Assembly: GCA_023134705.1 (NCBI GenBank)
Contig: JAGLUN010000051.1
Span: 3,362 to 67,361, forward strand
DNA from: Candidatus Omnitrophota bacterium
GTDB taxonomy: Bacteria; Omnitrophota; Gorgyraeia; Duberdicusellales; 4484-171
DNA length: 64,000 nt
Reading direction: 5' to 3'
Below are positions 1 to 20,642 of the stretch, piece after piece. Every line of letters begins with the position of its first letter. Positions within the stretch are counted from its first letter, which is position 1. The notes under the pieces are model-generated. The model had not been told where the DNA came from and searched no databases. It worked only from the letters and a program-made list of their open reading frames with translations. The position numbers and the translations under genes were made by a program.

Positions 1-1
1 T

Positions 2-4300: not shown

Positions 4301-4380
4301 GGATTTCACTTTGGATTATAATTTAAACTTTTATTTTCGGTTTTCTATTTTATGGTGTCTTGAATCTGGTATCTATTCAG

Positions 4381-4640: not shown

Positions 4641-4776
4641 GTTACATAAAGTTACTTAAAGTTACATAAGGTTACTTAAAGTTGCTTTAACGTGAAGCAA
4701 CCTTCCCTAACCTTAAGTAACGTTCTCAAAGTAACCTTCTTTAAGTAACCTTATTAGCCATCGACCATTGACTTCC
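4641..4776. repeat. Family-B element: imperfect palindrome built from GTTAC units phased every 10-11 bp, ending in GCCATCGACCATTGACTTCC
   Basis: The left arm is GTTACATAAAGTTACTTAAAGTTACATAAGGTTACTTAAAGTTGC. The centre is TTTAACGTGAAGCAACC. The right arm is the reverse-complement GTAACC units. Confidence 0.8.
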
Positions 4777-4801
4777 TTTGGGGTGTAGGGATAGAAGGGG
4801 C

Positions 4802-5143
4802 TTATTTCAAATATTCTTTTATTTTCAGCATTTTATTTTTTATATCCGGGATGTCCCGTAGTACAACTTCTAAAGTTAATTTCAAATCTATGCCGAAATA
4901 TTCATGTATAAGGATATCCCTCATACCGGCAATCTTTTTCCATGGAATCTCCGGATATTTTTCTTTTATGTCATCGGAAATATTCTTAACTGCTTCCCCG
5001 ATAATTTCGATACGGCGAATAACGGAATCCTGAAGCTGGACAGAGCCAAAAAAGTCATTGTCTGTTTTATCCCGCATATACTTTTCAACCAGCTCAATAG
5101 ATTCCAATATATGTTCTATCAATACTTTAACGTCTTTTTTCAT
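4802..5143 (-). CDS. hepT: HepT-like HEPN toxin (DUF86) of a HepT/MntA toxin-antitoxin pair
   Basis: It carries the Rx4HxY motif (RDILIHEY) and is 113 aa. It overlaps the upstream partner by 4 bp. Confidence 0.75.
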
Positions 5144-5427
5144 AAAATAATTTCTTGTTCTTCTAATATCTTTTCTTTAAGGAGGGGGTGAAGAGAAGCG
5201 TAGGTGACGATATCTACTTTTCTCCCCAGTAACTCCTGAAGTTCCAATTTTAAACCTACCAGATCTAATAAACTTTTTTTTTCTCCAAACTCAATAAGCA
5301 AATCAATATCACTTTCCTTTGTGATTTCGTTTCTTACAACCGAACCAAAAAGGGCGGCTTTTTTTACATTATGCTTTTTCAGTATTTTGTGAAAAACCTT
5401 TTTTATTTCATCAATCTGGATATCCAT
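5140..5427 (-). CDS. mntA: MntA-like minimal nucleotidyltransferase antitoxin
   Basis: It carries [17 protein letters not shown] (the GS...DxD nucleotidyltransferase motif). It is 95 aa and translationally coupled to hepT. Confidence 0.75.
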
Positions 5428-5636
5428 AAGTAGATTTGCTAAGGCACCCGTGAATAATAATGAAACAACTTAGTCCGATTATATAATAGCTTTATGTGCT
5501 TGTCAATAAAACCAGCGTTTTCTATTCGCGTATCGCATATCGAGGATCTAACAGATTATTCCTCCTCTCTCGTCCTTCATCTCTATATTCTTTACGAGTA
5601 TCGAGCATCGAGGATCTAGCATCAAGGATCTAAAAG

Positions 5637-5672
5637 GTTACATAAAGTTGCATAAAGTTACATAAGGTTGCG
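5637..5672. repeat. Family-B forward arm (GGTTACATAAAGTTGCATAAAGTTACATAAGGTTGCG) on the left of the four-helix-bundle gene
   Basis: It has the same phased GTTAC units as 4641..4690. The matching reverse arm lies at 6108..6225, on the other side of the gene. Confidence 0.7.
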
Positions 5673-6128
5673 TTTTTTTCGCAGCTTTGCGCCGGGGACT
5701 TTCCATGTTCCTTCCCGCTCCATCTTATACAAAGATTTAAGATATTGTCCAGTCATATAAGTCGCGCTTTGAAATAATTTCGAAAATGCGTCGAATTCTT
5801 TTTTGCTAATCAATCCGTCATCTTTGCAATCTTCAACATCGCCGCTTAATTCTTCTAAAGAACCCAGACTAATTCTAATGCTATGGATATATTCACCTAG
5901 AGTTCCTTTTCTATATCCCTCCCGTATATTTTGTTTTGCGCTTCTTGCGGCATCTCTCATTTGCGAAATCAGTCTTAGATGTATTGTTGAAAATCTTTTC
6001 GTTATTTTATGAATGAACTTACGTATTTGATAAATATCCTGATAAAATTTTAGCTTTTCATAGGCCAGAGTTTCCCGTCTTTCGTGTATTCTTTCGTCCA
6101 TTTCCTCTCTAACCTTCCCTAACCTCAA
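5658..6128 (-). CDS. Four-helix-bundle protein of the 23S rRNA intervening-sequence-associated family
   Basis: It carries ARSAKQNIREGYRKGT and SIRISLGSLEEL, the family core motifs (compare SxxNIAEG ... SxxExxxxL). It is 156 aa. Confidence 0.65.
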   Translation of the reverse strand: MRLGKVREEMDERIHERRETLAYEKLKFYQDIYQIRKFIHKITKRFSTIHLRLISQMRDAARSAKQNIREGYRKGTLGEYIHSIRISLGSLEELSGDVEDCKDDGLISKKEFDAFSKLFQSATYMTGQYLKSLYKMEREGTWKVPGAKLRKKRNLM

Positions 6129-6225
6129 GTAACTTTCTTAACGTAACCCTCTCAACGTAACCTTCTCTAACTTTAAGTAACTTTCTCAATGTACCCTTCC
6201 CCATGTAACCTTATGTACCCTTCCC
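6108..6225. repeat. Family-B reverse arm (GTAACC/TAACC units) on the right of the four-helix-bundle gene
   Basis: The sequence AACCTTCCCTAACCTCAAGTAACTTTCTTAACGTAACCCTCTCAACGTAACCTTCTCTAAC is nearly identical to 7783..7830 and 53880..53960. Confidence 0.75.
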
Positions 6226-6860
6226 TATCTAATGCGATAGCCCTCTACTATCTTCTCGAATTTTTTTTGAACACAAGAACGAATTCTTAAATTGGTTATT
6301 TTCCTTATCCATCCTTTCGCGTTCTTTAAATGAAATTGCTCTGAAAAATGCAGCTCAGGAAAATATCCAAACTGTTTTTTTTTACGGCAAGACAAATACA
6401 GGCTGTCAATTAAGGCCTTTTCAGGCTCAGCGATTAAGAATTCACCTTTTCCTTTAGACCAACAGAACCCGTCAAAGAATGAGGGGGCAATACGATGAAA
6501 AGAAAACACGCCTATTTTTGTTGATATAACTTTTGTATGAACCAGGGATGCGAGAGTAATTACTTGAGGTATTTGTTCAACTATTCCATAAAGATGTAGA
6601 GCACTCACAAAAGAAACATATGCCCTATGCCGGGGAAGTAGAAAAGGGATAATATTATAAGGGCTTACATATTTATCCCCCTTCTCATACCACAGGCCCC
6701 TATAAACTTTTACAAGAACACTCTCTTTTTCCAAATTATTCAAGGCCTGCGTTACAACAGACAAAGATTTACCGGAAAGGGCAGCGATTTCACGCGTCGT
6801 AAAAACTTTTCGGCCTAACTGCTTAATAAACTTTAAAACGGAACTTCTACGTTTTTCCAT
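6225..6860 (-). CDS. abiEi: AbiEi-like antitoxin/transcriptional regulator (N-terminal wHTH)
   Basis: It sits immediately downstream of an AbiEii-type nucleotidyltransferase and overlaps it. It has an N-terminal wHTH-like segment and is 211 aa. Confidence 0.5.
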   Translation of the reverse strand: MEKRRSSVLKFIKQLGRKVFTTREIAALSGKSLSVVTQALNNLEKESVLVKVYRGLWYEKGDKYVSPYNIIPFLLPRHRAYVSFVSALHLYGIVEQIPQVITLASLVHTKVISTKIGVFSFHRIAPSFFDGFCWSKGKGEFLIAEPEKALIDSLYLSCRKKKQFGYFPELHFSEQFHLKNAKGWIRKITNLRIRSCVQKKFEKIVEGYRIR

Positions 6861-7623
6861 TTATCAACTCATCTATAAAATTACACACCTTCAGTTTAAT
6901 CCCATCCCATACAGAACGCGTATCATACACATTCTGATCTTCGACAGAGAGATAAGAAACCACACTATCACGAAACTGTTCAAAACTGATTTCAAGTACA
7001 TTCTGATACGCCTTTTTTAAAATATTCTTTTCAATAAGTAATGCCCGGCTCTTGTCATATTGTGAACTCAAAAGATGAAGGTCAAAAACATCTCTTGCTT
7101 GAAGAAAAGCCCTTGTAACTAATGCTTTTATCTTTTGGCTCACCATAGAATCCGCGTCATAGTGAGGAACTAAAATCGGCGGCAGCTTATAGGCCCGCAA
7201 TACAGTATCCATAACTTCTTCTACCCGTACGCCTTCTTTAAAACCTCTCCTTGAAAATTCAATTTTAATAAATAAATCCTCTCCGCTTGCGGTTATCAAA
7301 TGGACTTTAAATGGCTGGGTAGTTTGTGTTTGCTTTGCTTTTTTTATATCCGGAGGAATTATCTTTTCAATACCAAAAGGTCTAAGTGTGTCCTGAAATG
7401 ATTGGGAATTAAGGACATTCATTACCATTTCAATAAGAGTATCAACGGCTACCCTTTCTACATCCAAATCTATATCTTCTGAGTAACGAATACTGTGAAA
7501 GAAAAAGCGCAAATTTACTCCACCCTTTAAAACATAGGTATCGGGTTTGAGCTTTCTCCCAAGCCATCGTAAGAATTCTAAATGAAATACCTCTCTTACT
7601 TGTAACGGGCTGTTTATTAGCAT
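6847..7623 (-). CDS. abiEii: AbiEii/AbiGii-family nucleotidyltransferase toxin (DUF1814)
   Basis: It carries LKGGVNLRFFFHSIRYSEDIDLDVE, matching the family signature LKGGTxL...R.SEDIDL. It is 258 aa. Confidence 0.7.
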   Translation of the reverse strand: MLINSPLQVREVFHLEFLRWLGRKLKPDTYVLKGGVNLRFFFHSIRYSEDIDLDVERVAVDTLIEMVMNVLNSQSFQDTLRPFGIEKIIPPDIKKAKQTQTTQPFKVHLITASGEDLFIKIEFSRRGFKEGVRVEEVMDTVLRAYKLPPILVPHYDADSMVSQKIKALVTRAFLQARDVFDLHLLSSQYDKSRALLIEKNILKKAYQNVLEISFEQFRDSVVSYLSVEDQNVYDTRSVWDGIKLKVCNFIDELINGKT

Positions 7624-7690
7624 TATAATTATGTATTATAGTTTAGTTATAACTAAATTTCAATACATTACTAAAAAGGTTAGATAAACG

Positions 7691-7833
7691 ATTACATAAA
7701 GTTATTTAAAGTTGCATTAACGTTACGTAACCTTCTTAACGCAACCTTCCCTAACCTTAAGTAACCTTCTCTAAGTAGCCTTCTCTACGTAACCTTCCCT
7801 AACCTCAAGTAACTTTCTTAACGTAACCTTCTC
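7691..7833. repeat. Family-B palindromic element with a short forward arm and a long reverse arm
   Basis: The sequence runs ATTACATAAAGTTATTTAAAGTTGCATTAACGTTACGTAACC, followed by phased GTAACC units. Confidence 0.8.
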
Positions 7834-7925
7834 ATCTCACTTGTATCTCTATATTCTTTGCGAGTATCTAGCATCGAGCATCCAGCATCTAAAGTGTTAT
7901 CCCTCATCTTTCGTCCCTCGTCTCT
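7834..7925. repeat. Family-A repeat segment (GCATCGAGCATCCAGCATC units, then CGTCCCTCGTC)
   Basis: It has the same units as 4396..4560. Confidence 0.7.
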
Positions 7926-8106
7926 TGAATTCCGGTGACTCAATGCTTAATTATTAACCACAAGATTGTAGAATCTGCAACAAACTTTTTAAAATCCTTT
8001 TCAAAATTCTCTTTTAGTGCTATTCTATAATTGTTTTACAAAGAAACGTAATAGTTTAATTATTCATTTTATGGGAGAGTAAACATTTAGGAGAAATTAG
8101 TTTTAT

Positions 8107-9681
8107 ATGGAAAAATATCTTATCTATAGCTTTTCAGGTGAACTGGACGATATATCTCATTTATTTCCTAACGAGAGATTAGCGCATATTGCGTCTATAA
8201 TAAATGCTTTAGGGAAAGAAGTTGCGATTTGGGATAGGGGGAATATTGATACACTAATTGCCTATGGAGCAGAAAAGATTAAGGAATTTGGAGATTTAGC
8301 TTTCGAAGATTTAAGCGATGATTATTTGAGCCTTGTTGAAAAAGAAGCAAGCAAAATAATTGAAGGTGGATTTGGTATGATTTTCCTTAATCTATGGCAG
8401 GGTTCCGGATTTAAGTTCTCAATGGACTTGGCAGAATTTTTAAAGACAAAGAGTGATGTTAAAATCTATGGGATTGGCCAGAAAGTCGATTGGTTTAAAG
8501 AGGATATTTTAAAAATAGCACCCTATATAGACGGCCTGATTTTAGGTTTAGGATTTGAGGCTATAGAAAGGATGATGGCCGGAGAAAAAGTAGAAACCAT
8601 TCCTAATTTGATATTGAGAGCAAAAGGGGGGGATTTGGTTTTTACTCTCAGAGAGGCCGTAACCAATATAAATACTCTCCCTCTACCCATTTATAATTCC
8701 AGAATATATACGGGAATTGGGGGGAAGATTCCTCTTTATCATATTGCCTTGTCTAATCAAGCCTGCCCTGGAAGATGTACTTTTTGTGAAAGGCCGGAAA
8801 ATTACGGGAGAAAGATTGTAAGAAGAGATATAAATATGGTAATAGATGAGCTTAGATATTTAATGGATAGCTGCAATGCGAGGTATTTTAGAATAGCTGA
8901 TTCGACTCCTCCGCCTCAATCCCTGACTGAACTCGCGAAGGCTATCATTTCCTCCGGCCTCCATAAGAAAGGCATTCATCTGTCAGCCTTCTCAAGAATA
9001 GATATAAATAGAAAAGAAGATTTCCCGGTTCTAAAAAAGGCGGGATTTGAAACTTTGTTCTTTGGTATAGAGTCGTTGGATAACGGAAATTTAGAGCGGA
9101 TAAATAAATGCATAACTTATACAGATATAAAAACTACTTTAGAAGAAGCATGTAAGGCAGATCTCTTTGTTGTCGGTAGTTTTATCTTTCCTATACCCGG
9201 GGAAACTAAAAAATCAATGGAAAATACACTCACAAGGCTTAATGAAATTAAAAAATACCTAAATTCTGCATTATTACAGCCTGCCGGAGTATATCCTTCA
9301 ACTGATTGGGGAAGAAATCCTAAAAAATACGGGATATTGCTTTCGCCAGATTATGTTAAGGAAGCTTTAATATATCCTATAAAACTTCTTATACCTATGA
9401 GATTCTGGACTCCCTTTCCATTTACCTACCGTATAATGGAAAAAGAAGCTGAAGATGTCAAATTTGAAGATATCATTTTAGTTTTTGAGCAGTTCTATAA
9501 AGCAGTAAGGACAGAAATAGGCATTCCAGGGATTCAAGATTATGGTCTCCTCATTGCCAAGATGCTTAAAAAGGATCCTCTTGAATTCACAAATGAAAGC
9601 ATAAAATATATGGTTACAAGGGATTATGCTAAAATAAAACAGATTGTAGAAGAAACTCAAAGAGGTCTTTCATGCCAGTGA
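8107..9681 (+). CDS. B12-binding-domain radical SAM protein (class B)
   Basis: It carries CPGRCTFCE (CxxxCxxC) in mid-protein. The N-terminal third is Rossmann-like and cobalamin-binding-like. It is 524 aa. Confidence 0.6.
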   Translation: MEKYLIYSFSGELDDISHLFPNERLAHIASIINALGKEVAIWDRGNIDTLIAYGAEKIKEFGDLAFEDLSDDYLSLVEKEASKIIEGGFGMIFLNLWQGSGFKFSMDLAEFLKTKSDVKIYGIGQKVDWFKEDILKIAPYIDGLILGLGFEAIERMMAGEKVETIPNLILRAKGGDLVFTLREAVTNINTLPLPIYNSRIYTGIGGKIPLYHIALSNQACPGRCTFCERPENYGRKIVRRDINMVIDELRYLMDSCNARYFRIADSTPPPQSLTELAKAIISSGLHKKGIHLSAFSRIDINRKEDFPVLKKAGFETLFFGIESLDNGNLERINKCITYTDIKTTLEEACKADLFVVGSFIFPIPGETKKSMENTLTRLNEIKKYLNSALLQPAGVYPSTDWGRNPKKYGILLSPDYVKEALIYPIKLLIPMRFWTPFPFTYRIMEKEAEDVKFEDIILVFEQFYKAVRTEIGIPGIQDYGLLIAKMLKKDPLEFTNESIKYMVTRDYAKIKQIVEETQRGLSCQ

Positions 9682-10349
9682 AAGTAGTAGAGGTAAAAGA
9701 AGTAACTAAAGATTTTTATTTAGGGAAAACCGTAATTCAGGCATTATGGAAGCTGAGCATTAATGTGGAAGATGGTGAGTTTATAGCCATCGCCGGCCCT
9801 TCAGGAAGCGGTAAAACTACGCTTCTTAATCTTATCGGCTGTATTGATAACCCGACTTCCGGAACTATAAAAATTGATGACGTGCAGGTAAACAATCTTT
9901 CCTCTAATAGATTAGCCGAACTACGAGCCTCTAAAATAGGTTTTATATTCCAAAGTTTTAATTTGATTCCTGTACTTTCAGGATTTGAAAATGTAGAATA
10001 TCCCCTTTTGAAAAAAAGAATGAATAAAGATGAACGGAAAAAAAGGGTTACTGCTGTTTTAGAAAATGTGGGATTGGAAAAATTTATCGAGCATAGACCC
10101 GATGAATTAAGCGGCGGCCAACGGCAAAGAGTAGCTATAGCCAGAGCTTTGGTTTCTAATCCTAAGATTATATTGGCGGATGAACCAACGGCTAATCTGG
10201 ATCATTCCACAGGAATAGATATTTTGAACCTTATGAAAAAAATAAATAAACTTTCAGGAACTACTTTTATCTTTTCTACGCATGACCCTAAAATAATAAA
10301 TATAGCGGACCGGATAATAAATCTATTTGACGGACAACTTTCAAAATAA
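9672..10349 (+). CDS. ABC transporter ATP-binding protein (MacB/LolD type)
   Basis: It has Walker A GPSGSGKTT, the signature LSGGQRQRVAIARAL and Walker B ILADEPT. Confidence 0.85.
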   Translation: MPVKVVEVKEVTKDFYLGKTVIQALWKLSINVEDGEFIAIAGPSGSGKTTLLNLIGCIDNPTSGTIKIDDVQVNNLSSNRLAELRASKIGFIFQSFNLIPVLSGFENVEYPLLKKRMNKDERKKRVTAVLENVGLEKFIEHRPDELSGGQRQRVAIARALVSNPKIILADEPTANLDHSTGIDILNLMKKINKLSGTTFIFSTHDPKIINIADRIINLFDGQLSK

Positions 10350-10356
10350 TCTGTAA

Positions 10357-11586
10357 TTGTTAGATATTATGTGTCTTAAGATAGCCATACGAAATGTCTT
10401 TAGAAATAAAGTAAGGACGATAATTACTCTTTTGGCAATAACTTTTGGTTGTATGTCTTTAATTTTAATCGGTGGTTTTATCCATGACGCTTTGACTACT
10501 TATAGAGACAGCATTATATATAGCCGTTTAGGGCACATACAAATTGCCAAAAAGGGTTTTTTTAAAGAAGGGACAATTAAACCCTTCGATTACATGATTG
10601 ATAATCCTGAAGAATTGAGGGAAGCACTCGATTCTTTAGACCACATAGAAAGAATAACTCCCCGGCTTCAATTTGTAGGCCTTCTCAGCAAGGGAGAAAC
10701 AACGTTTCCTTTTTTGGCCGAAGGAATCGATCCTGCCGGAGAGAAGTCTTTAAGTTCATACATTGAATTTGAAAAGGGTGAAAATCTTTCCAAAGGGGAT
10801 AATTACACGATTATTTTAGGAAAAGGCCTTGCGCGGGCAATCGGGGCGGACGTTGGTGACGATATGATTATACTTACCAATACAATCGAAGGTGGAATGA
10901 ACGCTCTTGACGTTAAAGTAAAAGGTATTTTTTACACTTCTTCAAAAGAATATGATGATCATTTTTTAAGAATACCGGTTCGGACAGCCCAATATTTACT
11001 TCAGACAGAGAAAGTTCAGAAATTTATCGTTATCTTAGATAAAACGGCAAACCTTAAAAAAGTCACAAATAGACTTGACGATTTTTTTGTAAAAAACAAT
11101 CTTCCTCTTGAATATAAAACTTGGTTTGACCTGGCGGAATTTTATAATAAACTTGTCGCGGTATATGAACGCCAGCTTAAAGTAATCAATATTATCATTT
11201 ACATTATTGTTATTTTAAGTATCAGCAACACTATGAGTATGGCCATATTTGAACGCACAAGAGAGATAGGTACGATTATGGCGTTAGGCGCTAAAAGGCA
11301 TGAAGTCTTATTCCTTTTTATTTTAGAAGGGGCTGTCTTAGGCGCCATAGGCAGTTTATTAGGTATCGGAGGCGGTATCTTTTTTGCCCATCTAATTTCC
11401 TGGATAGGTATTCCTATGCCTCCCGGCCCGGGCATCTCAGTAGGTTGGATAGGTAAAATCGCGGTAGTACCCGCGGTAGTATGTATATCTTTTTTTCTTT
11501 GTATGATTTCTGCAGTAATTTCTTCATTCTATCCCGCGTTTAAAGCAAGTAGACTTAATGTGGCGGAAGCTTTGCGCTATGTATAA
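10357..11586 (+). CDS. FtsX-like ABC permease (MacB/LolCE family) with a large periplasmic domain
   Basis: It has an N-terminal transmembrane segment, a periplasmic domain and three C-terminal transmembrane segments. It is 409 aa and directly follows the ATPase. Confidence 0.7.
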   Translation: MLDIMCLKIAIRNVFRNKVRTIITLLAITFGCMSLILIGGFIHDALTTYRDSIIYSRLGHIQIAKKGFFKEGTIKPFDYMIDNPEELREALDSLDHIERITPRLQFVGLLSKGETTFPFLAEGIDPAGEKSLSSYIEFEKGENLSKGDNYTIILGKGLARAIGADVGDDMIILTNTIEGGMNALDVKVKGIFYTSSKEYDDHFLRIPVRTAQYLLQTEKVQKFIVILDKTANLKKVTNRLDDFFVKNNLPLEYKTWFDLAEFYNKLVAVYERQLKVINIIIYIIVILSISNTMSMAIFERTREIGTIMALGAKRHEVLFLFILEGAVLGAIGSLLGIGGGIFFAHLISWIGIPMPPGPGISVGWIGKIAVVPAVVCISFFLCMISAVISSFYPAFKASRLNVAEALRYV

Positions 11587-12385
11587 AAGAGTATTTCTTC
11601 TAATAGCTGTTGTTTTTATCATTCCTGCAGGAGTTTTTGCTGTTTTTCCACAAGAAACTTTACCCACTATTGAACCCACCAGCGAAGTTAATGGAGTTAA
11701 GCGTATATCCTTATTTACTCCGGAGGAAATTTTAGAAAAATCAGACATGATAAGATCCCCAAATTTTGATTTTTCAGTTGAAGTAATAATTACCAGTTTT
11801 AGATCTAACAGAGAAACAACTGTCAGCCGTTATGAAACTATGATAAAAGAAAAAGATAAAACTTTGGTGAAAAGCGTCTATCCCCCGCGAGATAAAGGAA
11901 GAATCATTCTTATGCGTGGTTGGGATTTATGGATTTATTTACCTACTGTTTCCCGCCCGATCCGTATTTCACCGCGTGAAAGATTATTTGGAGAGGTATC
12001 ATATGGTGATATTGCCCGTATTAACTTTACTCACGATTATAATCCCGTTTTACTGGGGATAGAAAAAATAGACGAGAAAGAATATTATGTTCTTGAGCTT
12101 AATGCCGAAAATGAAAGGGTAACCTACCATAAAGTTATTTATTTCGTCGAAAAAAACACATTCAATCCATTTAAGGCGGAATTTTACGCTGTTTCGGGTA
12201 TCCTTCTTAAGGAGTGTTTGTATGAAGATTATCGTTATGTGTTAGGAGAATCCCGTCCGATGAAGCTCATTATTACCGATAAGCTTGTTAAAGGAAAAAA
12301 ATCAATAATGGAATATAAAAATATGACAAAAGCCGATTGGCCGGAAAAGATATTTAACAAATTTTACCTGAAGAAATTGAAATAA
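11579..12385 (+). CDS. LolA-like / DUF1329-like outer-membrane lipoprotein-sorting family protein (secreted)
   Basis: It has the signal peptide MYKRVFLLIAVVFIIPAGVFA. Its size and position after a MacB-like pair fit this family. The family call rests on resemblance. Confidence 0.4.
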   Translation: MYKRVFLLIAVVFIIPAGVFAVFPQETLPTIEPTSEVNGVKRISLFTPEEILEKSDMIRSPNFDFSVEVIITSFRSNRETTVSRYETMIKEKDKTLVKSVYPPRDKGRIILMRGWDLWIYLPTVSRPIRISPRERLFGEVSYGDIARINFTHDYNPVLLGIEKIDEKEYYVLELNAENERVTYHKVIYFVEKNTFNPFKAEFYAVSGILLKECLYEDYRYVLGESRPMKLIITDKLVKGKKSIMEYKNMTKADWPEKIFNKFYLKKLK

Positions 12386-12479
12386 AAAGGAAAGGTTTCG
12401 AGTTTGTTTTTTCGTTTTTTGGAAAACAGCATTTGAATTTATAAAAAGTATTTTTTTGTCTAATCTATTTATATCCGAA

Positions 12480-13829
12480 ATGAGAAAGACTTATGGATAT
12501 ATAATTATATTAACTCTCGTTTCTTTAATGCCTTTTTTCTCGAATGGAAAAGAACTTCCTCAAATTTTGTTGAAAGAAGAATCTCGGGAATTTGAGCCTC
12601 TTCCCTTTCCTTTTTCTGTTTCTCCTCCTTCCGGCTTCTTAAAAAGCGAATTTGCCTGCAGGGTTGTATCTTCTACAGAATGGACTAAAATGCGCAATAT
12701 TTTTCAAACATCTCTCCGGGGAGAATTGTTTGAAAATATAAAATTTAAATTTACCGGCCGCGCCTTCTATGATGCTGTATTCGCTTTAACTAACAATTTT
12801 TCAAGCGGAGTAAAAGATGACCATGGCCATGAAATTTGTTTAAGAGAAGCGTTTCTTGATTTTCCTTTGGGGGGGTGGGATTTTAGAATAGGTAAACAAC
12901 AAATTGTCTGGGGTGAAGCTGTGGGGATATTCCTTGCCGATATTGTAAACGCTAAAGATTTAAGAGAATTCATCTTGCCGGATTTTGACTTTATTCGGTT
13001 ATCACAATGGGCGGTTAACGCCGAATATTACTTAGAGAAATTTCATTTCGAACTAATATGGCAGCCTATTCTTGAATTTAATGAATTAGGTGTTCCTGGT
13101 TCTGAATTCGCTTTATCATTTCCTCCAAAACCGTTACCTTACATAATTACCGAAACAGATACTCCCGCTAATAGTTTAAAGAACGGCGAAGCTGGAATTC
13201 GTTTGTCTCATTCCGCTGAAACTTTTGATACAAACCTTTTTTATCTTTATTGTTTTGAAGATAATCCTATTTGGTTTCGTTCGATTGCTTCCACGTCAGC
13301 CGGGGCTACTTCTTTTGTTAACCTTCGATATAAACGTCAACATCAGATTGGCCTGACTTTTTCCAAAGAGTTAATTCCATTCATGGTAAGGGGAGAGTTC
13401 CTTTATACGACACCTAAGTATTTATCTGTATTAGACGCAACAGATGAAGATGGGGTAATTAAAAAAGAGATATTGGACTATGTACTGGGCATGGATTATA
13501 CGTTTTTTAAAAAAGTAGATTTTAATATGCAATTCGTTCAACACCTGATTTTTAATTACGACTCCCGTCTTCCCGAAGACCAAACAACAAGTTATTTATC
13601 ATTGCGGGCTGCTGCCGGATTTTTAAACAATGCGATTGAACCCGAAGTGTTTTTTATGTCCAATTTGTCCCAATCTGATTATCTGTTCCGCCCAAAGGTG
13701 AAATTCAATGTGAATGATGCCTGGCAGGTAAACGTTGGCGGCGATTTCTTTGGCGGGAAAACAATGAGTTTCTTTGGCCAATTTAAGGATAGAGACAGGG
13801 TATATTTAGAAGCCAAGTATGCTTTTTAA
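12480..13829 (+). CDS. DUF1302-like outer-membrane beta-barrel protein
   Basis: It has a signal peptide, the RIGKQQIVWGEA motif, alternating beta-strand-like segments and a C-terminal ...KYAF aromatic end typical of outer-membrane barrels. The start may be at 12456. Confidence 0.4.
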   Translation: MRKTYGYIIILTLVSLMPFFSNGKELPQILLKEESREFEPLPFPFSVSPPSGFLKSEFACRVVSSTEWTKMRNIFQTSLRGELFENIKFKFTGRAFYDAVFALTNNFSSGVKDDHGHEICLREAFLDFPLGGWDFRIGKQQIVWGEAVGIFLADIVNAKDLREFILPDFDFIRLSQWAVNAEYYLEKFHFELIWQPILEFNELGVPGSEFALSFPPKPLPYIITETDTPANSLKNGEAGIRLSHSAETFDTNLFYLYCFEDNPIWFRSIASTSAGATSFVNLRYKRQHQIGLTFSKELIPFMVRGEFLYTTPKYLSVLDATDEDGVIKKEILDYVLGMDYTFFKKVDFNMQFVQHLIFNYDSRLPEDQTTSYLSLRAAAGFLNNAIEPEVFFMSNLSQSDYLFRPKVKFNVNDAWQVNVGGDFFGGKTMSFFGQFKDRDRVYLEAKYAF

Positions 13830-13964
13830 AAATATGCCTTTTACGACAGATAATTAATGAGGATCCCCAATAGGGAATTGTTTGTTCCTATTTGTGAAGA
13901 TTTTGTTTGTAATTATTCGTAAAGTAATATAAAAAACATGGAAAATCGATAAGGAGGTTAATCT

Positions 13965-14669
13965 ATGTTTCAAAAAAAAGTGTTTATTATAAATACCATA
14001 ATTATAGGTATTCTTTTTGCTATTTCTAGTCTACTATCAGGGCTAATCTACAATGCTTTACGAATAATGAGCGGCCTCTATTTTAATCTATTTTTTATAT
14101 TTATCCTGCTGATTTCCGTAATGATATTTTATGTAATTTTCCTTTTATTCATCATTATCTACTATCGTACACTTTTAGCTTTTATCCCTCACCAAGAAGA
14201 TACAGTTTATTTGACTGAGAAAATTCCTTATCAGACCAGACAGCAATTAAGGACTATTCTTACCGGTGTAGCTTCAGACATAGCCACGCCTATATTATAC
14301 TATTTTTCTGATTGGCTGAAATTATTTGGTGCAAAAGTTGGAAAGAATTTTGTTCTCCGGGGAAAAGTTTGTAATCCTGAGTTGCTTGAAATTGGAAATA
14401 ACGTGCTTATTGGAAATAGCAGCTTCATTACTGCTCATTTGAAAGATGGAGTTCGGCTTATTTTCAAAAAAATAAAAATAGGGCATAATTGTACTATCGG
14501 GGTTAAAAGTATACTTTTTCCCGGGGTGGAGATTGGTGATAATTCAATTATTGGCGCCTATTCATTACTCCCGAAAGATATGAAAATTCCTCCTAATCAG
14601 GTTTGGGCCGGGATACCGGCAAAGAAAATAAAAGATATTGAAATTAAACACAGCCATTTAGATAAATAA
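13965..14669 (+). CDS. Membrane-anchored hexapeptide-repeat (LbH) acyl/acetyltransferase
   Basis: It has two N-terminal transmembrane helices. The C-terminal half carries I/L/V-G-x-N hexapeptide repeats (IGNNVLIGNSSFI, IGHNCTIGVKSILFPGVEIGDNSIIG). Confidence 0.5.
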   Translation: MFQKKVFIINTIIIGILFAISSLLSGLIYNALRIMSGLYFNLFFIFILLISVMIFYVIFLLFIIIYYRTLLAFIPHQEDTVYLTEKIPYQTRQQLRTILTGVASDIATPILYYFSDWLKLFGAKVGKNFVLRGKVCNPELLEIGNNVLIGNSSFITAHLKDGVRLIFKKIKIGHNCTIGVKSILFPGVEIGDNSIIGAYSLLPKDMKIPPNQVWAGIPAKKIKDIEIKHSHLDK

Positions 14670-14671
14670 GA

Positions 14672-15895
14672 ATGAAAACTATAGCAATGATTCCTAACGG
14701 ACATATTTTATCTCACCTTGTGAGGCTTTTGGTAATTGCCAGGGAATTACGCTCAAGGGGGCATAAAGTGATTTTTGCCGGCTCCGGTAAATATATGCAA
14801 ATAGCCGAAGATGAAGGGTTTGACGTATCCCTTCTTCTTGAAGCCGAGCATGAAAAATTAATGGCCGCCGTTAGAAAAAATAAAATAAACTTTATAAGTT
14901 TTAATGAGCTGGAACCCTTAGTTAAGGCAGATATAGAATTCTATAACAAAGTAAAGCCCGATTTAGTTCTTTCGGATGGAAGAATAAGCGCTATTGTTTC
15001 CAGCAGAATCCGTAAGGTACCGCATGGAGCCGTGGTTAACGCTTCTTCAACCGGCTATAGGGCTATTCCTTATGTGCCTTTATTCCCGTTTCTTTCAAAG
15101 ATACCTTTTAAAAAAAACTTCATATTCCAGGAATTGAACGTAAAGATTGAATGCGCGGTGTTTGATTTGTTTATGAGGGCATATACTAAGTTAAGCCGCA
15201 AATATAAATTAACCAGGCCTGTAAAGACGTCACAATTTTTAACCGGCTCTGATTTCACCTTACTTCCCGATATCCCTGAATATTTTCCTACATGTAATCT
15301 TCCCGAAAATTTCCATTATATCGGGCCGCTTCCCTGGGAAAGTAAACTTCCCCCTCCTTCCTGGATTAATGCGCTTAAAAAAGATTCCCCGGTAATTTAC
15401 ATAACTATGGGGTCCACAACTCCGGAAGATATTTATCAGTATATCCAGCGGGTTTTTACGAAATTGGATTACCAGGTTGTGCTTACTACCGGCGGCCAGG
15501 TGAGAAGCGAAATTATATCTTCAATGTCCGTTCCCGGAAAGATATTTGTAGAAAACTACGTAAATGGGGATCTTGTTATGCAAAAGAGTAATGTAGTAAT
15601 CTGCCATGGCGGGAATGGAACCATTTATCAAGCTATAAAAAATGGCGTTCCGATTGTAGGGATTCCCACTCACCACGACCAGGCATATAACATGAAAAGA
15701 GTGGAAAATCTGGGGATAGGGATAAAAGTCAGTTATGAACAATTTACAAAAGCTCCTTTGTCTTTGTTGAACGATTTAAAAAGAATTTTTTCTAATAATT
15801 CTTTCAGGGAAACAATTAGCAAATACCAAAAGATAGTGAATGCGTACACTCCGGCAAAAACAGCAGTTAACATTATAGAAGAGAGGTATATGTGA
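14672..15895 (+). CDS. GT1-family UDP-glycosyltransferase (MGT/UGT-like)
   Basis: It carries VICHGGNGTIYQAIKNGVPIVGIPTHHDQAYN, matching the UGT signature HGGxGT ... P ... DQ. It is 407 aa. Confidence 0.7.
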   Translation: MKTIAMIPNGHILSHLVRLLVIARELRSRGHKVIFAGSGKYMQIAEDEGFDVSLLLEAEHEKLMAAVRKNKINFISFNELEPLVKADIEFYNKVKPDLVLSDGRISAIVSSRIRKVPHGAVVNASSTGYRAIPYVPLFPFLSKIPFKKNFIFQELNVKIECAVFDLFMRAYTKLSRKYKLTRPVKTSQFLTGSDFTLLPDIPEYFPTCNLPENFHYIGPLPWESKLPPPSWINALKKDSPVIYITMGSTTPEDIYQYIQRVFTKLDYQVVLTTGGQVRSEIISSMSVPGKIFVENYVNGDLVMQKSNVVICHGGNGTIYQAIKNGVPIVGIPTHHDQAYNMKRVENLGIGIKVSYEQFTKAPLSLLNDLKRIFSNNSFRETISKYQKIVNAYTPAKTAVNIIEERYM

Positions 15896-15902
15896 TATGT
15901 AA

Positions 15903-16754
15903 AATAAGAAATTATCAAGGCAAAAATTTACCGGAGAAAGGCTTCTCTCCGGTAAAACTACCCCTTACTTTTTGGAAGAACATGCCTGCCGTTACAAATT
16001 CATAAAGGATATTATAAAAAATAAAGTTGTACTTGATGTGGGATGTGGTGAAGGGTATGGAGCTTAGTATTTGTCTTATTATGCTCAAAAAGTTGTTGCT
16101 ATAGATTTATCCCAAGAAACTATTGTTTATGCCCGGCAAAAATACGTAAGAAATAATTTAGATTTTTTTACTATGAACTCCTGTAGATTAGGATTTGATA
16201 ATGGAACATTTGATGTTATCTGTTCGTTCGAAATGATTGAACATGTTTTAGATGCCGGGGATTATCTCAAGGAAGCACAACGAGTATTAAACCAGGAAGG
16301 TATATTTATAGTTTCGACTCCCAACAAAAACAATTATCTTTTACACGGAAAAAATGAATTTCACGTCAAAGAATATTCTCTTGATGAATTCAGAAGTGCC
16401 TTGCAAAAATACTTCTCAAAGGTCGAGTTTTTTGGGCAAATATGCGGTTCCCGTTTTAGAAAATATTATAATTATGCTTTAGCAGGAATTTTTTTGAAGT
16501 TTAAAATCTTAACCTATATGCAAAATTTTCTTTCTTCATTTGCTAAACCTAAAGTTATCACGTTAGATGAGGTAAAACCCGTTATTTTCAGTTTTCAAAG
16601 CATGAAGTGTGGAAAGCTGATTTTTTTATCGCAAAATGCAAGAAGGAAGCCCGCTAAAAACGAACTTCCTTCTTTAGTTTTTAAATTTAAGCGATGTCTA
16701 TCTAACTTAAGCTTTAAGCTTAGATTTTCTTGCTTTTCCTTCTTTTTCCCATAA
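15903..16754 (+). pseudogene. Class I SAM-dependent methyltransferase interrupted by an in-frame TAG (16065..16067) and lacking a canonical start codon
   Basis: In one frame it reads QKFTGERLLSGKTTPYFLEEHACRYKFI...VVLDVGCGEGYGA*YLSYYAQKVVAIDLS...FDVICSFEMIEHV. Motif I is intact but followed by a stop. There is no ATG/GTG/TTG between the upstream TAA at 15900 and motif I. Confidence 0.5.
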
Positions 16755-17667
16755 AAGCAAATCCAAAGAGACCGAATCCCAGAAGAATAAGAGTACACGG
16801 TTCAGGTGTTCCGTATGCCCGTATAGGATCGGAACTTGTGACTTGCCATCCGTTGCTACCAGTTGATAAATCATGGTGGAGCCATATATCCGCAATAGCA
16901 TTGAGGGGACCTATTGTAAATTGACCTGGTACAAATGCACCTTGTCCACTTCCACCTAGTATTTCCAGATAACCATCACCATATCCTGTGTTAACTATGT
17001 TTGGGGTTGCCGGATAGACATTTATTGAACATTTGTAAACTATTTCCGGGGTACCATCGTGATCAAGATCAAGATATGGCACAAATCTTGAGGTTAACCA
17101 GAGGTTATTTGGTGCATCATCAATACCAGGGTAAGAATCATGTGATATCCCTTCTACCCATGCTCCTGGACCAGCTTGAGGTGCATTACCAGCGAGAGTA
17201 TTCCAGTCTGCACTCGTATCCTGCCATAGATCTGCTCGACCTGTATACCCTTGGGTTGTATACCTATTTCCTGCTTCGTAGTAAAATACTTGGGTCACGC
17301 TCCCATCAATTTCCGGAGTCCATGTTTGCGCGGCTAAAACGATATCATACATCATGAATCCAAATTCATCTGTTAAACTAGGGGTCCATACTGGAGATAG
17401 TCCGCTAGTTGACCATCCTGGTGGACCGTCAGCATGCCATACACTCTCAATGTTTCCCACACTTCGATCTTCATCTCCTATTACAAGAGGAGCACCAATA
17501 CCAACCGGAGACCACTCCTGCTCAGTATCATTCCAACGGAAATTTCCACTTGCATCTGTCATATGGAGAGCTATCGGCCCTTGAGGAATAATAATCGCTT
17601 CTGCCTTGGGAACTGCCCAGCATAAACTTATGGCGATTGCCATTACGATTAAACCTATTTTCTTCAT
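16720..17667 (-). CDS. Secreted PEP-CTERM-anchored protein (exosortase substrate)
   Basis: It starts at MKKIG with the RBS GGAGGTG and a signal peptide. Its C-terminus GTPEPCTLILLGFGLFGFAFMGKRRKSKKI has the PEP motif, a transmembrane helix and a basic tail. Confidence 0.8.
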   Translation of the reverse strand: MKKIGLIVMAIAISLCWAVPKAEAIIIPQGPIALHMTDASGNFRWNDTEQEWSPVGIGAPLVIGDEDRSVGNIESVWHADGPPGWSTSGLSPVWTPSLTDEFGFMMYDIVLAAQTWTPEIDGSVTQVFYYEAGNRYTTQGYTGRADLWQDTSADWNTLAGNAPQAGPGAWVEGISHDSYPGIDDAPNNLWLTSRFVPYLDLDHDGTPEIVYKCSINVYPATPNIVNTGYGDGYLEILGGSGQGAFVPGQFTIGPLNAIADIWLHHDLSTGSNGWQVTSSDPIRAYGTPEPCTLILLGFGLFGFAFMGKRRKSKKI

Positions 17668-17821
17668 CTTTCTTTCACCTCCTTCTTTTTTAGATTTTTT
17701 GTGACTTGAATTGTCACTCTTTGTGAATAAATTTTTACGTCCCATTTTACTTCTCCCTCCTTTCTTCTTTTGTGTTTTGTTTTTTCATTATTTGTTATTT
17801 TCCTGCTATTCGCTTTAGTTT

Positions 17822-17839
17822 AAGCAAGAGGCGTGCCAG
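17822..17839 (-). promoter_or_regulatory. Sigma-54 promoter (-24 TGGCAC / -12 TTGCT) for the PEP-CTERM gene
   Basis: The minus strand reads CTGGCACGCCTCTTGCTT, a perfect TGGCAC-N5-TTGC. Confidence 0.6.
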
Positions 17840-18340: not shown

Positions 18341-18395
18341 CTTCACGCGATACGCAACATGCGATATGCGATACGCATTTACGCGATACGTTTTC
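18341..18395. repeat. Family-A CGCGATACG array overlapping the last codons of the PEP-CTERM gene
   Basis: It reads CACGCGATACGCAACATGCGATATGCGATACGCATTTACGCGATACG. Confidence 0.7.
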
Positions 18396-19134
18396 TCCGC
18401 CTGAATCCCGCACCAGCTAATCCTATAAGCCCGGATCCAAGAAGAAGTATGGTTGCCGGTTCGGGGATAGGAGCTGTGTCGGCATCGTGGGAATATGGAG
18501 CGAAAACATCCTTCGACGTCCCGTTATCTTTATAGTAGGTGCCTGTAAGGTCAAAATGGATAAAAGAAAATATGGGGTTATAACTTATATCGTAAACCTG
18601 AATCTGTCCTAAGTCTTGTCCGTCACTTTCTGCAGGATTCCCCGGATTATAAGACAGGTCATAATTGTAAACAGTTGTCATTACGGCAAGAGGTGTAAAT
18701 AAAAAATCGTCGAGCTCCATAGAGGCATAATAAGTGAGATATATTCCATGAGGAGAAGTCCCTTCAGGTTGTCCGAAAGTTTCAAAATCATCTTTAAAGA
18801 GCTTTATGCCACCAATAGTGATAATCGGTGTTGTCTCTTCTTCAGTTGTCTCTTCTTCATAGGAAAGGTATTGATTTTCAAGGAGTGATATATGAAGTTT
18901 GACCTCGGTTATCTCAGTAAGAGTCCCATTTTTAGAGGCGCCCACGGCCCAGAGTTCAAAAGGATTATCGGTAGTAATCCATGTGTCTTCGCTTTTATCG
19001 GGAAACCAAGGGCTAACTTCATAATAAGTAGAATTAGGAATATAGAGTTGCAGTGCAGAAACAGCAAAAGCCGGAGTTGTAATGCCAAATACTAAAAATA
19101 GAAGCATTAAACCTTTCAACATACTTTTTTTCAT
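18379..19134 (-). CDS. Secreted PEP-CTERM-anchored protein
   Basis: It has the signal peptide MKKSMLKGLMLLFLVFGITTPAFA. Its C-terminus is IPEPATILLLGSGLIGLAGAGFRRRKRIA. Confidence 0.8.
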   Translation of the reverse strand: MKKSMLKGLMLLFLVFGITTPAFAVSALQLYIPNSTYYEVSPWFPDKSEDTWITTDNPFELWAVGASKNGTLTEITEVKLHISLLENQYLSYEEETTEEETTPIITIGGIKLFKDDFETFGQPEGTSPHGIYLTYYASMELDDFLFTPLAVMTTVYNYDLSYNPGNPAESDGQDLGQIQVYDISYNPIFSFIHFDLTGTYYKDNGTSKDVFAPYSHDADTAPIPEPATILLLGSGLIGLAGAGFRRRKRIA

Positions 19135-19192: not shown

Positions 19193-19210
19193 AAGCAAAA
19201 AATGTGCCAA
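19193..19210 (-). promoter_or_regulatory. Sigma-54 promoter (TGGCAC-N5-TTGCT) about 60 bp upstream of the PEP-CTERM start
   Basis: The minus strand reads TTGGCACATTTTTTGCTTAC. Confidence 0.6.
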
Positions 19211-20624: not shown

Positions 20625-20642
20625 AAGCAAAAAATGTGCCAA
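20625..20642 (-). promoter_or_regulatory. Sigma-54 promoter (TGGCAC-N5-TTGCT)
   Basis: The minus strand reads TTGGCACATTTTTTGCTTGTT. The spacing to the ATG is the same as for the promoter at 19193..19210. Confidence 0.6.

Follow-up and report, generated by a model that had tools for sequence, protein, structure and literature searches.

The LolCDE-LolA-LolB pathway extracts acylated cargo from the inner membrane and hands it across the periplasm with an FtsX/MacB-fold permease, a LolD-like ATPase, a soluble carrier of the LolA superfamily and an outer-membrane receiver. Counterparts of all four are encoded within a block of eight plus-strand genes at positions 8107 to 16754 of a 64,000-nucleotide stretch of DNA (here called the window) from the metagenome-assembled genome of a Candidatus Omnitrophota bacterium (assembly GCA_023134705.1, contig JAGLUN010000051.1), and the logic of this locus may well be the same. 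The block also encodes a radical S-adenosylmethionine (SAM) enzyme (rSAM), a left-handed beta-helix (LbH) acyltransferase, a family 1 glycosyltransferase (GT1) and the remains of a methyltransferase (Table 1). It departs from the Lol pathway in that its carrier is TP_0789-like (PF17131), its receiver is an integral DUF1302 barrel and not the lipoprotein LolB, and its gene partners are small-molecule lipid enzymes instead of lipoprotein maturation machinery. With only one permease gene, the transporter is expected to be a homodimer and not a LolC/LolE pair, and neither transporter protein reaches the corresponding NCBIfam cutoff (lolCE 124.7 bits against 362.45; LolD 236.7 against 307.75). DevBCA-HgdD is a MacB-type ATP-binding cassette (ABC) system that exports a heterocyst glycolipid made by nearby biosynthetic genes, including a glycosyltransferase. 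The window likewise holds a MacB-type ABC transporter near a glycosyltransferase, and its ATPase scores 227.1 bits on DevA (cutoff 295.8), but the block contains no HlyD/membrane-fusion domain such as DevB would supply and no TolC-like duct, having the LolA-like carrier and DUF1302 barrel instead. Type VII ABC systems use mechanotransmission to act on cargo located on the periplasmic side of the inner membrane, and one of them, YbbAP-TesA of E. coli, has been proposed to pull hydrophobic molecules out of that membrane to a periplasmic partner (PMC12646458). The window ATPase scores 196.5 bits on YbbA, below the cutoff of 336; in E. coli the partner is the hydrolase TesA, whereas here it would be a carrier and a barrel. 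A DUF1302 barrel with a LolA/LolB-like partner and an inner-membrane exporter is also found in the proteobacterial DUF1302/DUF1329/BNR/RND cluster, proposed to export an envelope component (Price et al., bioRxiv 10.1101/072470). The energiser in the window is a type VII ABC transporter and not an RND pump, the partner is PF17131 and not DUF1329, and BNR is absent; none of these three cluster partners appears among the Pfam matches of the block or its recurrent neighbour families, and one related carrier (L132) has a weak DUF1329 match. The window barrel belongs to a family of about 450 aa whose members often carry N-terminal AMIN, SPOR or OmpA domains, another difference from that cluster.

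The second line of comparison runs through the N-acyl amino acid synthases of the FeeM family. Characterised members make long-chain N-acyl amino acids from acyl-acyl carrier protein (acyl-ACP) (Brady and Clardy, as cited in PMC7293339 and PMC11631085), and PEP-CTERM genes adjoin such synthase genes according to Craig et al. 2011, as cited in PMC7293339. In Methylomonas LW13, a mutant in such a synthase lacks its polysaccharide band (PMC11072679). The proposed stieleriacine cluster of Stieleria maiorica combines four synthases, a beta-ketoacyl-ACP synthase (KAS) II, a TcdA/ThiF-like enzyme, an oxidoreductase, a PEP-CTERM protein and RND pumps, and the accessory genes of such FeeM clusters also include a methyltransferase (PMC7293339). 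Our locus resembles these clusters in having FeeM beside PEP-CTERM genes, and the same accessory families surround the transport module or the rSAM gene in other loci. It differs in using the ABC/LolA-like/DUF1302 module where Stieleria uses RND pumps, in its rSAM gene, of which the Stieleria paper makes no mention, and in lacking ThiF and nitroreductase genes.

With a probability of roughly one half, we interpret the block as the tailoring and export arm of a PEP-CTERM-linked lipoamino-acid pathway and not as a free-standing eight-gene cassette. Each component class is already known, as is the link between synthases and PEP-CTERM proteins. The novelty lies in a trans-envelope module, Lol-like and driven by a type VII ABC transporter, whose receiver is a barrel and which is embedded in a modular lipoamino-acid/PEP-CTERM gene network. 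We found no paper or NCBIfam model that links these parts together, and no paper linking DUF1302 or a TP_0789-like carrier to N-acyl amino acid synthases or PEP-CTERM proteins.

A conserved module in a FeeM and PEP-CTERM network

Neighbourhoods of homologous genes were surveyed from two anchors. The rSAM gene led to 35 orthologous loci (43-56% identity) in GTDB representative genomes, drawn from Omnitrophota, Brocadiaceae and other Planctomycetota, Victivallales/Lentisphaerota, Verrucomicrobiota, Ratteibacteria, Muiribacteriota, Riflebacteria and Myxococcales-labelled metagenome-assembled genomes. The DUF1302 barrel led to 80 loci in JGI metagenomes, which form 67 non-redundant groups, 36 of them with at least 8 kb of sequence. 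Survey loci carry labels such as L053, with L001 being the source contig of the window. Open reading frames (ORFs) of the fetched loci were called mechanically, the neighbours in the barrel loci were clustered by BLAST and then scanned with Pfam and NCBIfam, and enrichment was judged by comparing the two anchored sets with each other. Relatives returned by the collection scans are those that match short peptide patterns, and many loci are short metagenome contigs, so that absences are to be read as lower bounds.

Within the block, the four-gene ABC/FtsX/LolA-like/DUF1302 module is the part that is widely conserved as a unit. Its order and strand in the window are kept in more than 20 of the barrel loci with the closest barrels. 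ATPase homologues of 48-67% identity occupy the same place in the module. In loci with more distant barrels the module is rearranged, often with two permease genes and with the carrier on the opposite strand. Natural fusions of the LolA-like protein with DUF1302 also exist (P0149, P0181, P0183).

FeeM is the sole family enriched around both anchors, at 9 of 35 rSAM loci and 27 of 80 barrel loci. Other partners are specific to one set: KAS (11/35) and FadL (10/35) accompany the rSAM gene but occur in only 1/80 and 0/80 barrel loci, whereas ThiF (23/80) and nitroreductase genes (26/80) accompany the barrel and are found in 0/35 rSAM loci. Counted by non-redundant barrel groups, FeeM is present in 24 of 67, a ThiF-family protein (PRK08223) in 20 of 67 and an Acg/Rv3131-like nitroreductase in 22 of 67; at least one of the three occurs in 41 of the 67, and in 27 of the 36 groups of at least 8 kb. 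The original prediction had named, as the outcome that would tell against it, separate transcription units with unrelated conserved neighbourhoods. What was observed does not take that form: the neighbourhoods of the parts do differ, but they all converge on FeeM. NCBIfam PRK14852 is a natural fusion of FeeM, ThiF and nitroreductase, and PRK14851/Rv1355c is a fusion of the latter two. Such fusions point to a conserved activation and oxidation step on N-acyl amino acids, a step in whose place the window, to judge from its gene content, would have the rSAM enzyme. Fused ThiF and Acg-like nitroreductase proteins are also seen in the survey loci themselves (L132 5080-7245; L135 15540-17579).

The window's own FeeM genes, which share a BLAST cluster with FeeM proteins adjoining the module elsewhere, lie in its first 4300 nucleotides as two PilZ/FeeM pairs. 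Together with the AMP-ligase/ACP/PlsC-acyltransferase fusion, they are probably the core biosynthetic genes of the pathway, and the original prediction had passed over them. The fusion gene is cut by the start of the window and is complete on the source contig (897 aa, L001 336-3029, with AMP-binding, PP-binding and Acyltransferase domains); it is probably both acyl donor and second acyltransferase. By analogy with OlsA in ornithine-lipid synthesis, it could supply acyl-ACP and add a second acyl chain. It resembles Aas and stands directly 5' of the first PilZ-FeeM pair. That pair overlaps by 4 nt at 1568-1571 and is translationally coupled. The 121-aa PilZ-like ORF of the second pair has no Pfam match and clusters by BLAST with the first PilZ gene and with PilZ-like neighbours elsewhere. 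Neither FeeM gene of the window matches TIGR03694. One Omnitrophica genome encodes two PilZ-FeeM fusion proteins immediately past the barrel gene (L126 11835-14690). A second such genome has the module flanked by FeeM, two PilZ genes, a response regulator and a PlsC acyltransferase (L128). The placement of PilZ 5' of each FeeM gene, and these fusions, suggest that N-acyl amino acid synthesis is under cyclic di-GMP (c-di-GMP) control.

The tailoring genes are linked to the same network. As the original prediction would lead one to expect, GT1, LbH and class-B rSAM genes all recur with the module, as optional partners, in unrelated bacteria. Of the 36 long groups, 8 have a GT1 homologue near the module and 4 an LbH homologue; LbH is paired with GT1 in L053, L060, L094, L096, L134 and L135, and the closest GT1 relative (63% identity) is in L134. 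The best single counterpart of the window is L053, in which one strand carries two FeeM genes, a histidine kinase, ABC, FtsX, LolA-like and barrel genes, followed by ThiF, nitroreductase, two PEP-CTERM genes, LbH, GT1 and a further FeeM. Searching outward from GT1, where all four orthologue contexts examined contain other network members, led to cultured bacteria. Desulfobacula phenolica has LbH, GT1, a barrel-LolA-like-FtsX-ABC series with a ThiF-nitroreductase fusion gene next to ABC, and FeeM; Desulfacinum infernum has ThiF/nitroreductase-ABC-FtsX-LolA-like-barrel-GT1; and in Geobacter metallireducens GS-15 a PEP-CTERM-GT1-acyltransferase series precedes two FeeM genes and a sigma-54 two-component system.

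Radical SAM genes join the module in more than one form. In L004 (Planctomycetia) a single tight plus-strand run comprises LolA-like, two FtsX, ABC and a 428-aa barrel gene and then the orthologous rSAM; this barrel is remotely related to DUF1302 (hhalign, 85% probability, E 5.8e-6). In L056/L057 and L063 a different rSAM, about 25% identical to that of the window and with a Pfam B12-binding domain, follows an AMP-ligase gene and lies directly 5' of ABC as in the window, with FeeM and PilZ past the barrel. In L134 a GT1-LbH pair is followed by a third type of rSAM and then by a PEP-CTERM gene orthologous to the first one downstream of our block. The rSAM enzymes joined to the network thus belong to three different subfamilies, and their occupying the same position without being orthologous suggests a variable tailoring role.

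The PEP-CTERM genes themselves travel with the module. In the window three PEP-CTERM genes and PrsR lie within 20 kb of the two FeeM genes, and a scan for the motif gave PEP-CTERM-like ORFs in 19 of the 80 barrel loci against 2 of the 35 rSAM loci. The family A protein is 39% identical over its full length to the gene beside GT1-LbH-rSAM in L134 and has further relatives in L053, L063, L129, L050 and L120; family B has relatives in L053/L054, L063, L129 and L048/L049, so that both families are present in L053, L063 and L129. In L129 the module sits between PEP-CTERM genes and adjoins PrsR, a PrsK-like kinase and EpsI. The original prediction had correctly placed the block between toxin-antitoxin and PEP-CTERM genes. 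The block is not a system apart from PEP-CTERM, since the module recurs beside PEP-CTERM genes, with at least one locus each also having PrsK/PrsR-like regulators and EpsI.

Table 1. Features of the window and the matches on which their names rest
Feature	Position	Strand	Evidence
AMP-ligase + ACP + PlsC-acyltransferase fusion, 3' part	1-1156	+	Acyltransferase 91.1, PP-binding 28.4 bits
PilZ + FeeM N-acyl amino acid synthase	PilZ 1131-1571, FeeM 1568-2410	+	PilZ 36.2, FeeM 111.8 bits
Second PilZ-like + FeeM pair	PilZ-like 3058-3423, FeeM 3488-4300	+	FeeM 116.6 bits
HepT/MNT, 23S-rRNA-IVP protein and AbiEi/AbiEii toxin-antitoxin genes	4802-7623 (HepT/MNT 4802-5427; AbiEi/AbiEii 6225-7623)	-	Pfam labels on source contig
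Upstream intergenic region, repeat array and weak promoter-like site	7624-8106		tandem TAACCTTCY-based units at 7725-7834
Class-B-fold radical SAM, 524 aa, candidate tailoring enzyme	8107-9681	+	Pfam Radical_SAM 62.9 bits (cutoff 29.5)
ABC ATPase of type VII (MacB/LolD-like) transporter	9672-10349	+	ABC_tran 122.8 bits
FtsX/MacB-type permease with periplasmic core domain	10357-11586	+	MacB_PCD 69.5, FtsX 68.4 bits
LolA-like (TP_0789-like, PF17131) periplasmic carrier	11558-12385	+	PF17131 150.6 bits (cutoff 30)
DUF1302-family outer-membrane beta-barrel (PF06980)	12456-13829	+	DUF1302 86.9 bits (cutoff 23.2); weak Wzi match
Membrane-anchored LbH (hexapeptide) acyltransferase	13965-14669	+	Hexapep, Hexapep_2 about 40 bits
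GT1 UDP-glycosyltransferase, GT-B, small-molecule-acceptor type	14672-15895	+	UDPGT 59.4 (cutoff 19.5), Glyco_tran_28_C 58.3, EryCIII-like_C 50.2 bits (cutoff 31.7)
Class I SAM methyltransferase pseudogene	15897-16754	+	frame from 15897; ORF 16071-16754 is the 3' part only
PEP-CTERM protein, family A	16720-17745	-	PEP-CTERM motif
PEP-CTERM 'choice-of-anchor N' protein, family B	18379-19134	-	NF038141 101.3 bits (cutoff 40)
Third PEP-CTERM protein	19857-20567	-	opposite strand, downstream of block
PrsR	20932-22296	-	TIGR02915 558.3 bits (cutoff 502.6)
PrsK-like histidine kinase	22477-24495	-	TIGR02916 248.2 bits (below cutoff 300)

The encoded proteins and a proposed pathway

The ORF listing of the window confirms eight co-directional plus-strand ORFs with short gaps or overlaps, and Pfam and NCBIfam scans return the domain calls of the original prediction for all eight. 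The transporter has the type VII layout: a four-transmembrane FtsX permease (four hydrophobic segments; MacB_PCD over residues 21-241, FtsX over 276-401) with a large periplasmic domain between TM1 and TM2 and an adjacent ATPase. The source contig calls a 405-aa permease, so its start is probably near 10369. The original prediction had raised DUF1329 and DUF1302 as possible families for the two outer-membrane-associated proteins; the barrel is indeed DUF1302, and the carrier is PF17131 and not DUF1329. The carrier is close to PDB 3BUU, a structural-genomics entry of the LolA superfamily that represents NE2245 of Nitrosomonas europaea (E 2.9e-62). The carrier bears a Sec signal peptide ending in VFA, lacks a lipobox cysteine and probably starts at 11579, which gives 268 aa. 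The literature on TP0789 offers a proteomics mention that adds nothing on its role, and NCBIfam has no model for either carrier or barrel. The barrel protein has a signal peptide and a C-terminus ending in YAF; the NCBI product has 449 aa, so its start is probably 12480. Its predicted structure (pLDDT 81.7) is porin-like, with best TM-scores of 0.52-0.54 to AlgE and Occ barrels. A more specific functional match was sought and rejected, as the similarity is generic to 16-18-strand porins, AlgE and Occ, and a PDB sequence search with the barrel returned no relative. Many DUF1302 relatives carry the N-terminal AMIN, SPOR or OmpA peptidoglycan-binding domains mentioned above (P0122, P0130, P0132, P0142, P0172, P0177, P0184, P0222), suggesting a barrel anchored to the cell wall in some lineages.

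The original prediction had called the rSAM enzyme class B. That call is supported at the level of the modelled fold, with cobalamin use only putative because the Pfam B12-binding domain goes undetected. The model is of high confidence (pLDDT 94.9), and its top Foldseek matches are all class B enzymes: MgmA (E 1.2e-19), TsrM, AprD4, OxsB, TokK and CysS. The TM-score to TsrM is 0.66-0.69, and the matched class B structures include the N-terminal domain. Like these enzymes, the window protein would have an N-terminal Rossmann-like domain followed by a CxxxCxxC radical SAM barrel, and the motif (C220/C224/C227) is invariant in an alignment of 28 homologues; it differs from them in being only 12-17% identical and in reaching no curated family. 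AprD4 shows that a class B fold does not guarantee cobalamin use. Among the NCBIfam B12-rSAM families (HpnJ, PhpK, MgmA, ladderane rSAM, BchE, HpnR) the best score is 78 against a cutoff of 577.6 (HpnJ), and we therefore rejected a ladderane, hopanoid or tetraether-type lipid rSAM. The only PDB sequence match is MgmA, the glutamine methylase of methyl-coenzyme M reductase, and with the curated families below cutoff a specific assignment is impossible. The identical protein is present in two other assemblies, and the family is restricted to Omnitrophota, Planctomycetota, Lentisphaerota, Verrucomicrobiota, Kiritimatiellota and a few other groups. The shared theme of its neighbours across the rSAM loci is fatty-acyl and lipid chemistry, not transport: besides KAS, the FadL-type outer-membrane protein directly upstream and the FeeM-type acyltransferase, they include AMP-ligases and hybrid histidine kinases. 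In other Omnitrophota (L008, L014, L033, L036) the orthologous rSAM gene is divergent from an AMP-ligase operon, which in L014, L033 and L036 also holds one or two FeeM genes.

In the LbH protein, two or three membrane helices at the N-terminus (hydrophobic stretches at about residues 4-30 and 31-76) precede the C-terminal hexapeptide repeats; the best NCBIfam match is the Pls/PosA C-terminal domain (80 bits), followed by WcaF and LacA. The glycosyltransferase belongs, on its sequence matches, to GT1 but to no curated subfamily, scoring 112.5 bits on TIGR01426 (MGT) against a cutoff of 260; among solved structures it is nearest to YjiC, OleD, the CalG enzymes and sterol glucosyltransferase.

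The last gene had been predicted to be a broken methyltransferase with a tailoring role. That it is dead is borne out, but as a pseudogene without conserved association it drops out of the set of tailoring enzymes. Its frame reads M*NKK...VLDVGCGEGYGA*YLS..., with a TAA at 15900-15902 and a TAG at 16065-16067 directly past SAM motif I. The read-through translation covers positions 1-95 of the 95 of Methyltransf_11 (78.3 bits) and the truncated ORF scores 58.4 bits; a frameshift, located by eye, is likely near 16590-16600. We considered whether TAG might be recoded and rejected this: TAG ends 7 of 40 long ORFs in the window and is an ordinary stop there, leaving a pseudogene or an assembly error. 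Nor does the gene appear to be a degraded copy of the methyltransferase in the L128 module operon or of those adjacent to the rSAM in L033/L036, the similarity being generic to class I enzymes. No methyltransferase homologue lies near the module in the 80 barrel loci.

Put together, these parts suggest a pathway in four steps. First, the two FeeM synthases would N-acylate an amino acid from acyl-ACP, as the biochemistry of the family implies, with acyl-ACP coming from the AMP-ligase/ACP/PlsC fusion, whose PlsC domain may attach a second chain. Second, the class-B-fold rSAM would modify an unactivated carbon of the lipid, C-methylation being the simplest guess; GT1 would add a sugar in the cytoplasm and the membrane-anchored LbH enzyme would O-acylate the product. 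Third, the homodimeric type VII ABC transporter would pull the amphiphile from the inner membrane by mechanotransmission, and the soluble LolA-like carrier would take it to the DUF1302 barrel, which may insert it into the outer membrane or pass it through. Fourth, once at the surface the lipid would act jointly with the exopolysaccharide and the PEP-CTERM proteins that the adjoining sigma-54/PrsR-controlled locus specifies. The analysis shows the domain identities, the folds, the conserved four-gene module and a statistical linkage of the genes, while the substrate, the transport direction and the radical SAM reaction are inferred. The original prediction of a synthesis-and-export system that delivers a tailored lipid to the outer membrane fits this evidence, and the four transport genes in particular are strongly conserved.

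Points of difficulty and competing explanations

Several observations weigh against this reading. The original prediction took the eight genes as a set, and a neighbourhood search did not find them conserved as such: only one of the 35 rSAM loci (L004) has a transporter alongside, leaving 34 of 35 without one, GT1, LbH and methyltransferase homologues are found in 0 of 35, and no sampled locus holds all eight genes together. In Kiritimatiella glycovorans the rSAM gene lies between NMO (FabK-like) and U32/M20 peptidase genes, without FeeM; this context, and the orthologues that mostly lack a transporter, mean that the rSAM family may have a more general lipid role. The window FeeM genes lie 4-6 kb off, behind opposite-strand toxin-antitoxin genes, and so cannot be on one transcript with the block. 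The block lacks a sigma-54 promoter, unlike the PEP-CTERM genes. MacB-type transporters load from the periplasmic side. A lipid that receives its sugar in the cytoplasm would first have to be flipped, and no flippase came to light. Proteobacterial DUF1302 proteins work with DUF1329, BNR and RND partners in roles that are unclear, and a product has so far been observed for no member of the network. Finally, short metagenome contigs and mechanical ORF calls make the locus counts approximate. The Kiritimatiella region (L131, CP010904, 8491-13906) is from a cultured bacterium and adjoins a mevalonate-pathway operon, and a U32 gene also follows the rSAM in three Victivallales loci; the context in these two groups gives a hint of another lipid role for the family, perhaps a housekeeping one.

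If such points are given full weight, the block could be a mosaic of adjacent independent units, in which the rSAM serves a general lipid role, the transporter moves unrelated cargo, LbH and GT1 belong with the exopolysaccharide locus downstream, and no common product exists. The failure of the eight-gene set to recur and the 34 rSAM loci without a transporter would be expected of a mosaic, as would a decaying methyltransferase and FeeM genes stranded behind inserted toxin-antitoxin cassettes. Glycosyltransferases and sugar-nucleotide enzymes are abundant downstream, and promoters could lie in the gaps before LbH (135 nt) and before the barrel (70-94 nt); there is a weak promoter-like match at 13825-13854. 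We nevertheless consider a mosaic unlikely, because each working part recurs with the module in distant lineages, including rSAM genes of three subfamilies, and because the LbH-GT1 pair or GT1 alone is arranged in operon-like fashion with the module in L053, L060, D. phenolica and D. infernum. The 10-nt overlap of the rSAM and ABC genes and the lack of terminator-like sites in the gaps also argue for a joint unit.

It is also conceivable that the cargo is protein, and that the module is a Lol-like route for lipid-anchored, exosortase-processed PEP-CTERM proteins, with FeeM, GT1, LbH and rSAM building the acceptor lipid or glycolipid. Archaeosortase substrates receive a C-terminal lipid, and two PEP-CTERM families co-travel with the module, in L053 within one co-directional run. 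The excess of PEP-CTERM-like ORFs in module loci over rSAM loci and the position of the L129 module beside EpsI and PrsR/PrsK point the same way, and so do the LolA-superfamily carrier and the fact that permease and ATPase are nearest to LolCDE among NCBIfam models. Lipid anchoring, however, has been shown for no bacterial exosortase product, the LolCE and LolD scores are far under their cutoffs, and many module loci have no PEP-CTERM gene within reach, so that we give protein cargo only a slim chance. We speculate, with equally little confidence, that the ABC/LolA-like/DUF1302 system is a fourth Lol-type branch serving exosortase, which either brings a glycosylated, acylated lipoamino acid derived from FeeM to the outer membrane, where it would be the long-sought acceptor or anchor for the transfer of PEP-CTERM proteins by exosortase, or carries the lipid-anchored PEP-CTERM proteins themselves.

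In our preferred pathway transport would run outward. Import or sensing of hydrophobic molecules would instead suit the FadL gene that lies directly 5' of the orthologous rSAM in 10 of 35 loci, as well as the DUF1302/DUF1329 genes found in hydrocarbon and aromatic catabolic clusters; AupA/AupB, proteins of these two families, have been proposed to act in alkane uptake. This seems improbable, since the characterised type VII ABC systems (MacB, LolCDE, YbbAP) extract or expel and none is known to import, the partners FeeM, GT1, LbH and AMP-ligase are biosynthetic and not catabolic, and the window block has no FadL. An rSAM-modified, ribosomally synthesized and post-translationally modified peptide (RiPP), made and exported as in the darobactin operon, might be suspected from an rSAM gene directly 5' of a MacB-type transporter, from an ATPase with 224.5 bits on the darobactin DarD model (cutoff 375) and from the ThiF-like and nitroreductase-like enzymes that also serve some RiPP pathways, but we reject it as very improbable: the 483-nt upstream region has no credible precursor ORF (only TTG/GTG-started ORFs of 21-41 aa), the rSAM fold is class B and not SPASM-type, the conserved neighbours are the lipid enzymes FeeM, AMP-ligase, KAS and FadL, and a LolA-like carrier and porin-like barrel stand where the darobactin system has a membrane-fusion protein.

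Transcription, flanking DNA and implications

The spacing of the genes is operon-like from rSAM through the barrel, and again for LbH with GT1. The rSAM and ABC ORFs overlap by 10 nt, a gap of 7 nt separates ABC from FtsX, the FtsX and LolA-like ORFs overlap, and gaps of 2 nt and about 1 nt separate LbH from GT1 and GT1 from the pseudogene frame; the wider gaps are those before the barrel (about 70-94 nt) and before LbH. There are zero plus-strand terminator-like sites in all gaps of the block. From this we infer that the block is co-transcribed. Upstream of rSAM, a sigma-70-like match at 8035-8063 scores 9/12, and the region 7624-8106 contains no sigma-54 consensus. An Rfam scan of 4300-17000 returned no match, and cobalamin or c-di-GMP riboswitch control was rejected on this ground. 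Perfect sigma-54 promoters (TGGCAC-N5-TTGCT) are found instead on the minus strand at 17823-17838, 19194-19209 and 20626-20641, each 60-95 nt 5' of one of the three PEP-CTERM genes, which fits control of these genes by the adjacent PrsR. Since perfect sites occur only there, sigma-54/PrsR control of the block itself was rejected, and the neighbours appear to be under different promoters. A perfect hairpin with a 13-bp stem lies at 15927-15956, within the 5' part of the dead methyltransferase. The T-run falls on the minus strand, and the hairpin could therefore end the convergent PEP-CTERM transcript some 760 nt beyond the stop codon of the PEP-CTERM gene. The XrtA-type exopolysaccharide locus that lies beyond PrsR and the PrsK-like kinase includes an stp2-like glycosyltransferase, an O-antigen-ligase-like protein and sugar-nucleotide enzymes.

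The FeeM genes are split from the rSAM block by the inserted toxin-antitoxin cassettes. The TAACCTTCY-based tandem units of 12-14 nt in this part of the window are a dispersed intergenic repeat, with 16 exact matches against 1.57 expected, and arrays occur at 4690-4790, 6090-6230, 7690-7835, 20740-20860 and 53760-53960; some sites also hold an oppositely oriented block of the same units. Because arrays flank each cassette between FeeM and rSAM, they may mark insertion hot-spots or cassette boundaries. We also asked whether the upstream array (7670-7850) is a hairpin-forming element and rejected this, as it folds like shuffled sequence (z = -0.14).

Having tied the synthases to a trans-envelope module and tailoring enzymes, we can predict that the product of this network is a tailored, possibly glycosylated lipoamino acid, located in the outer membrane or at the cell surface. 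The module would then supply a class of cargo for DUF1302 barrels and for the TP_0789-like branch of LolA proteins (3BUU), neither of which has an established function. If the module were indeed a fourth Lol branch, this would explain why synthases, two PEP-CTERM families and a transporter travel together across phyla, and if its lipid is the exosortase acceptor, the module would show how PEP-CTERM proteins are anchored. Because the network is present in cultured bacteria, experiments are feasible: Desulfobacula phenolica and Desulfacinum infernum carry the full module, Geobacter metallireducens GS-15 carries GT1 and FeeM, and Nitrosomonas europaea carries NE2245.

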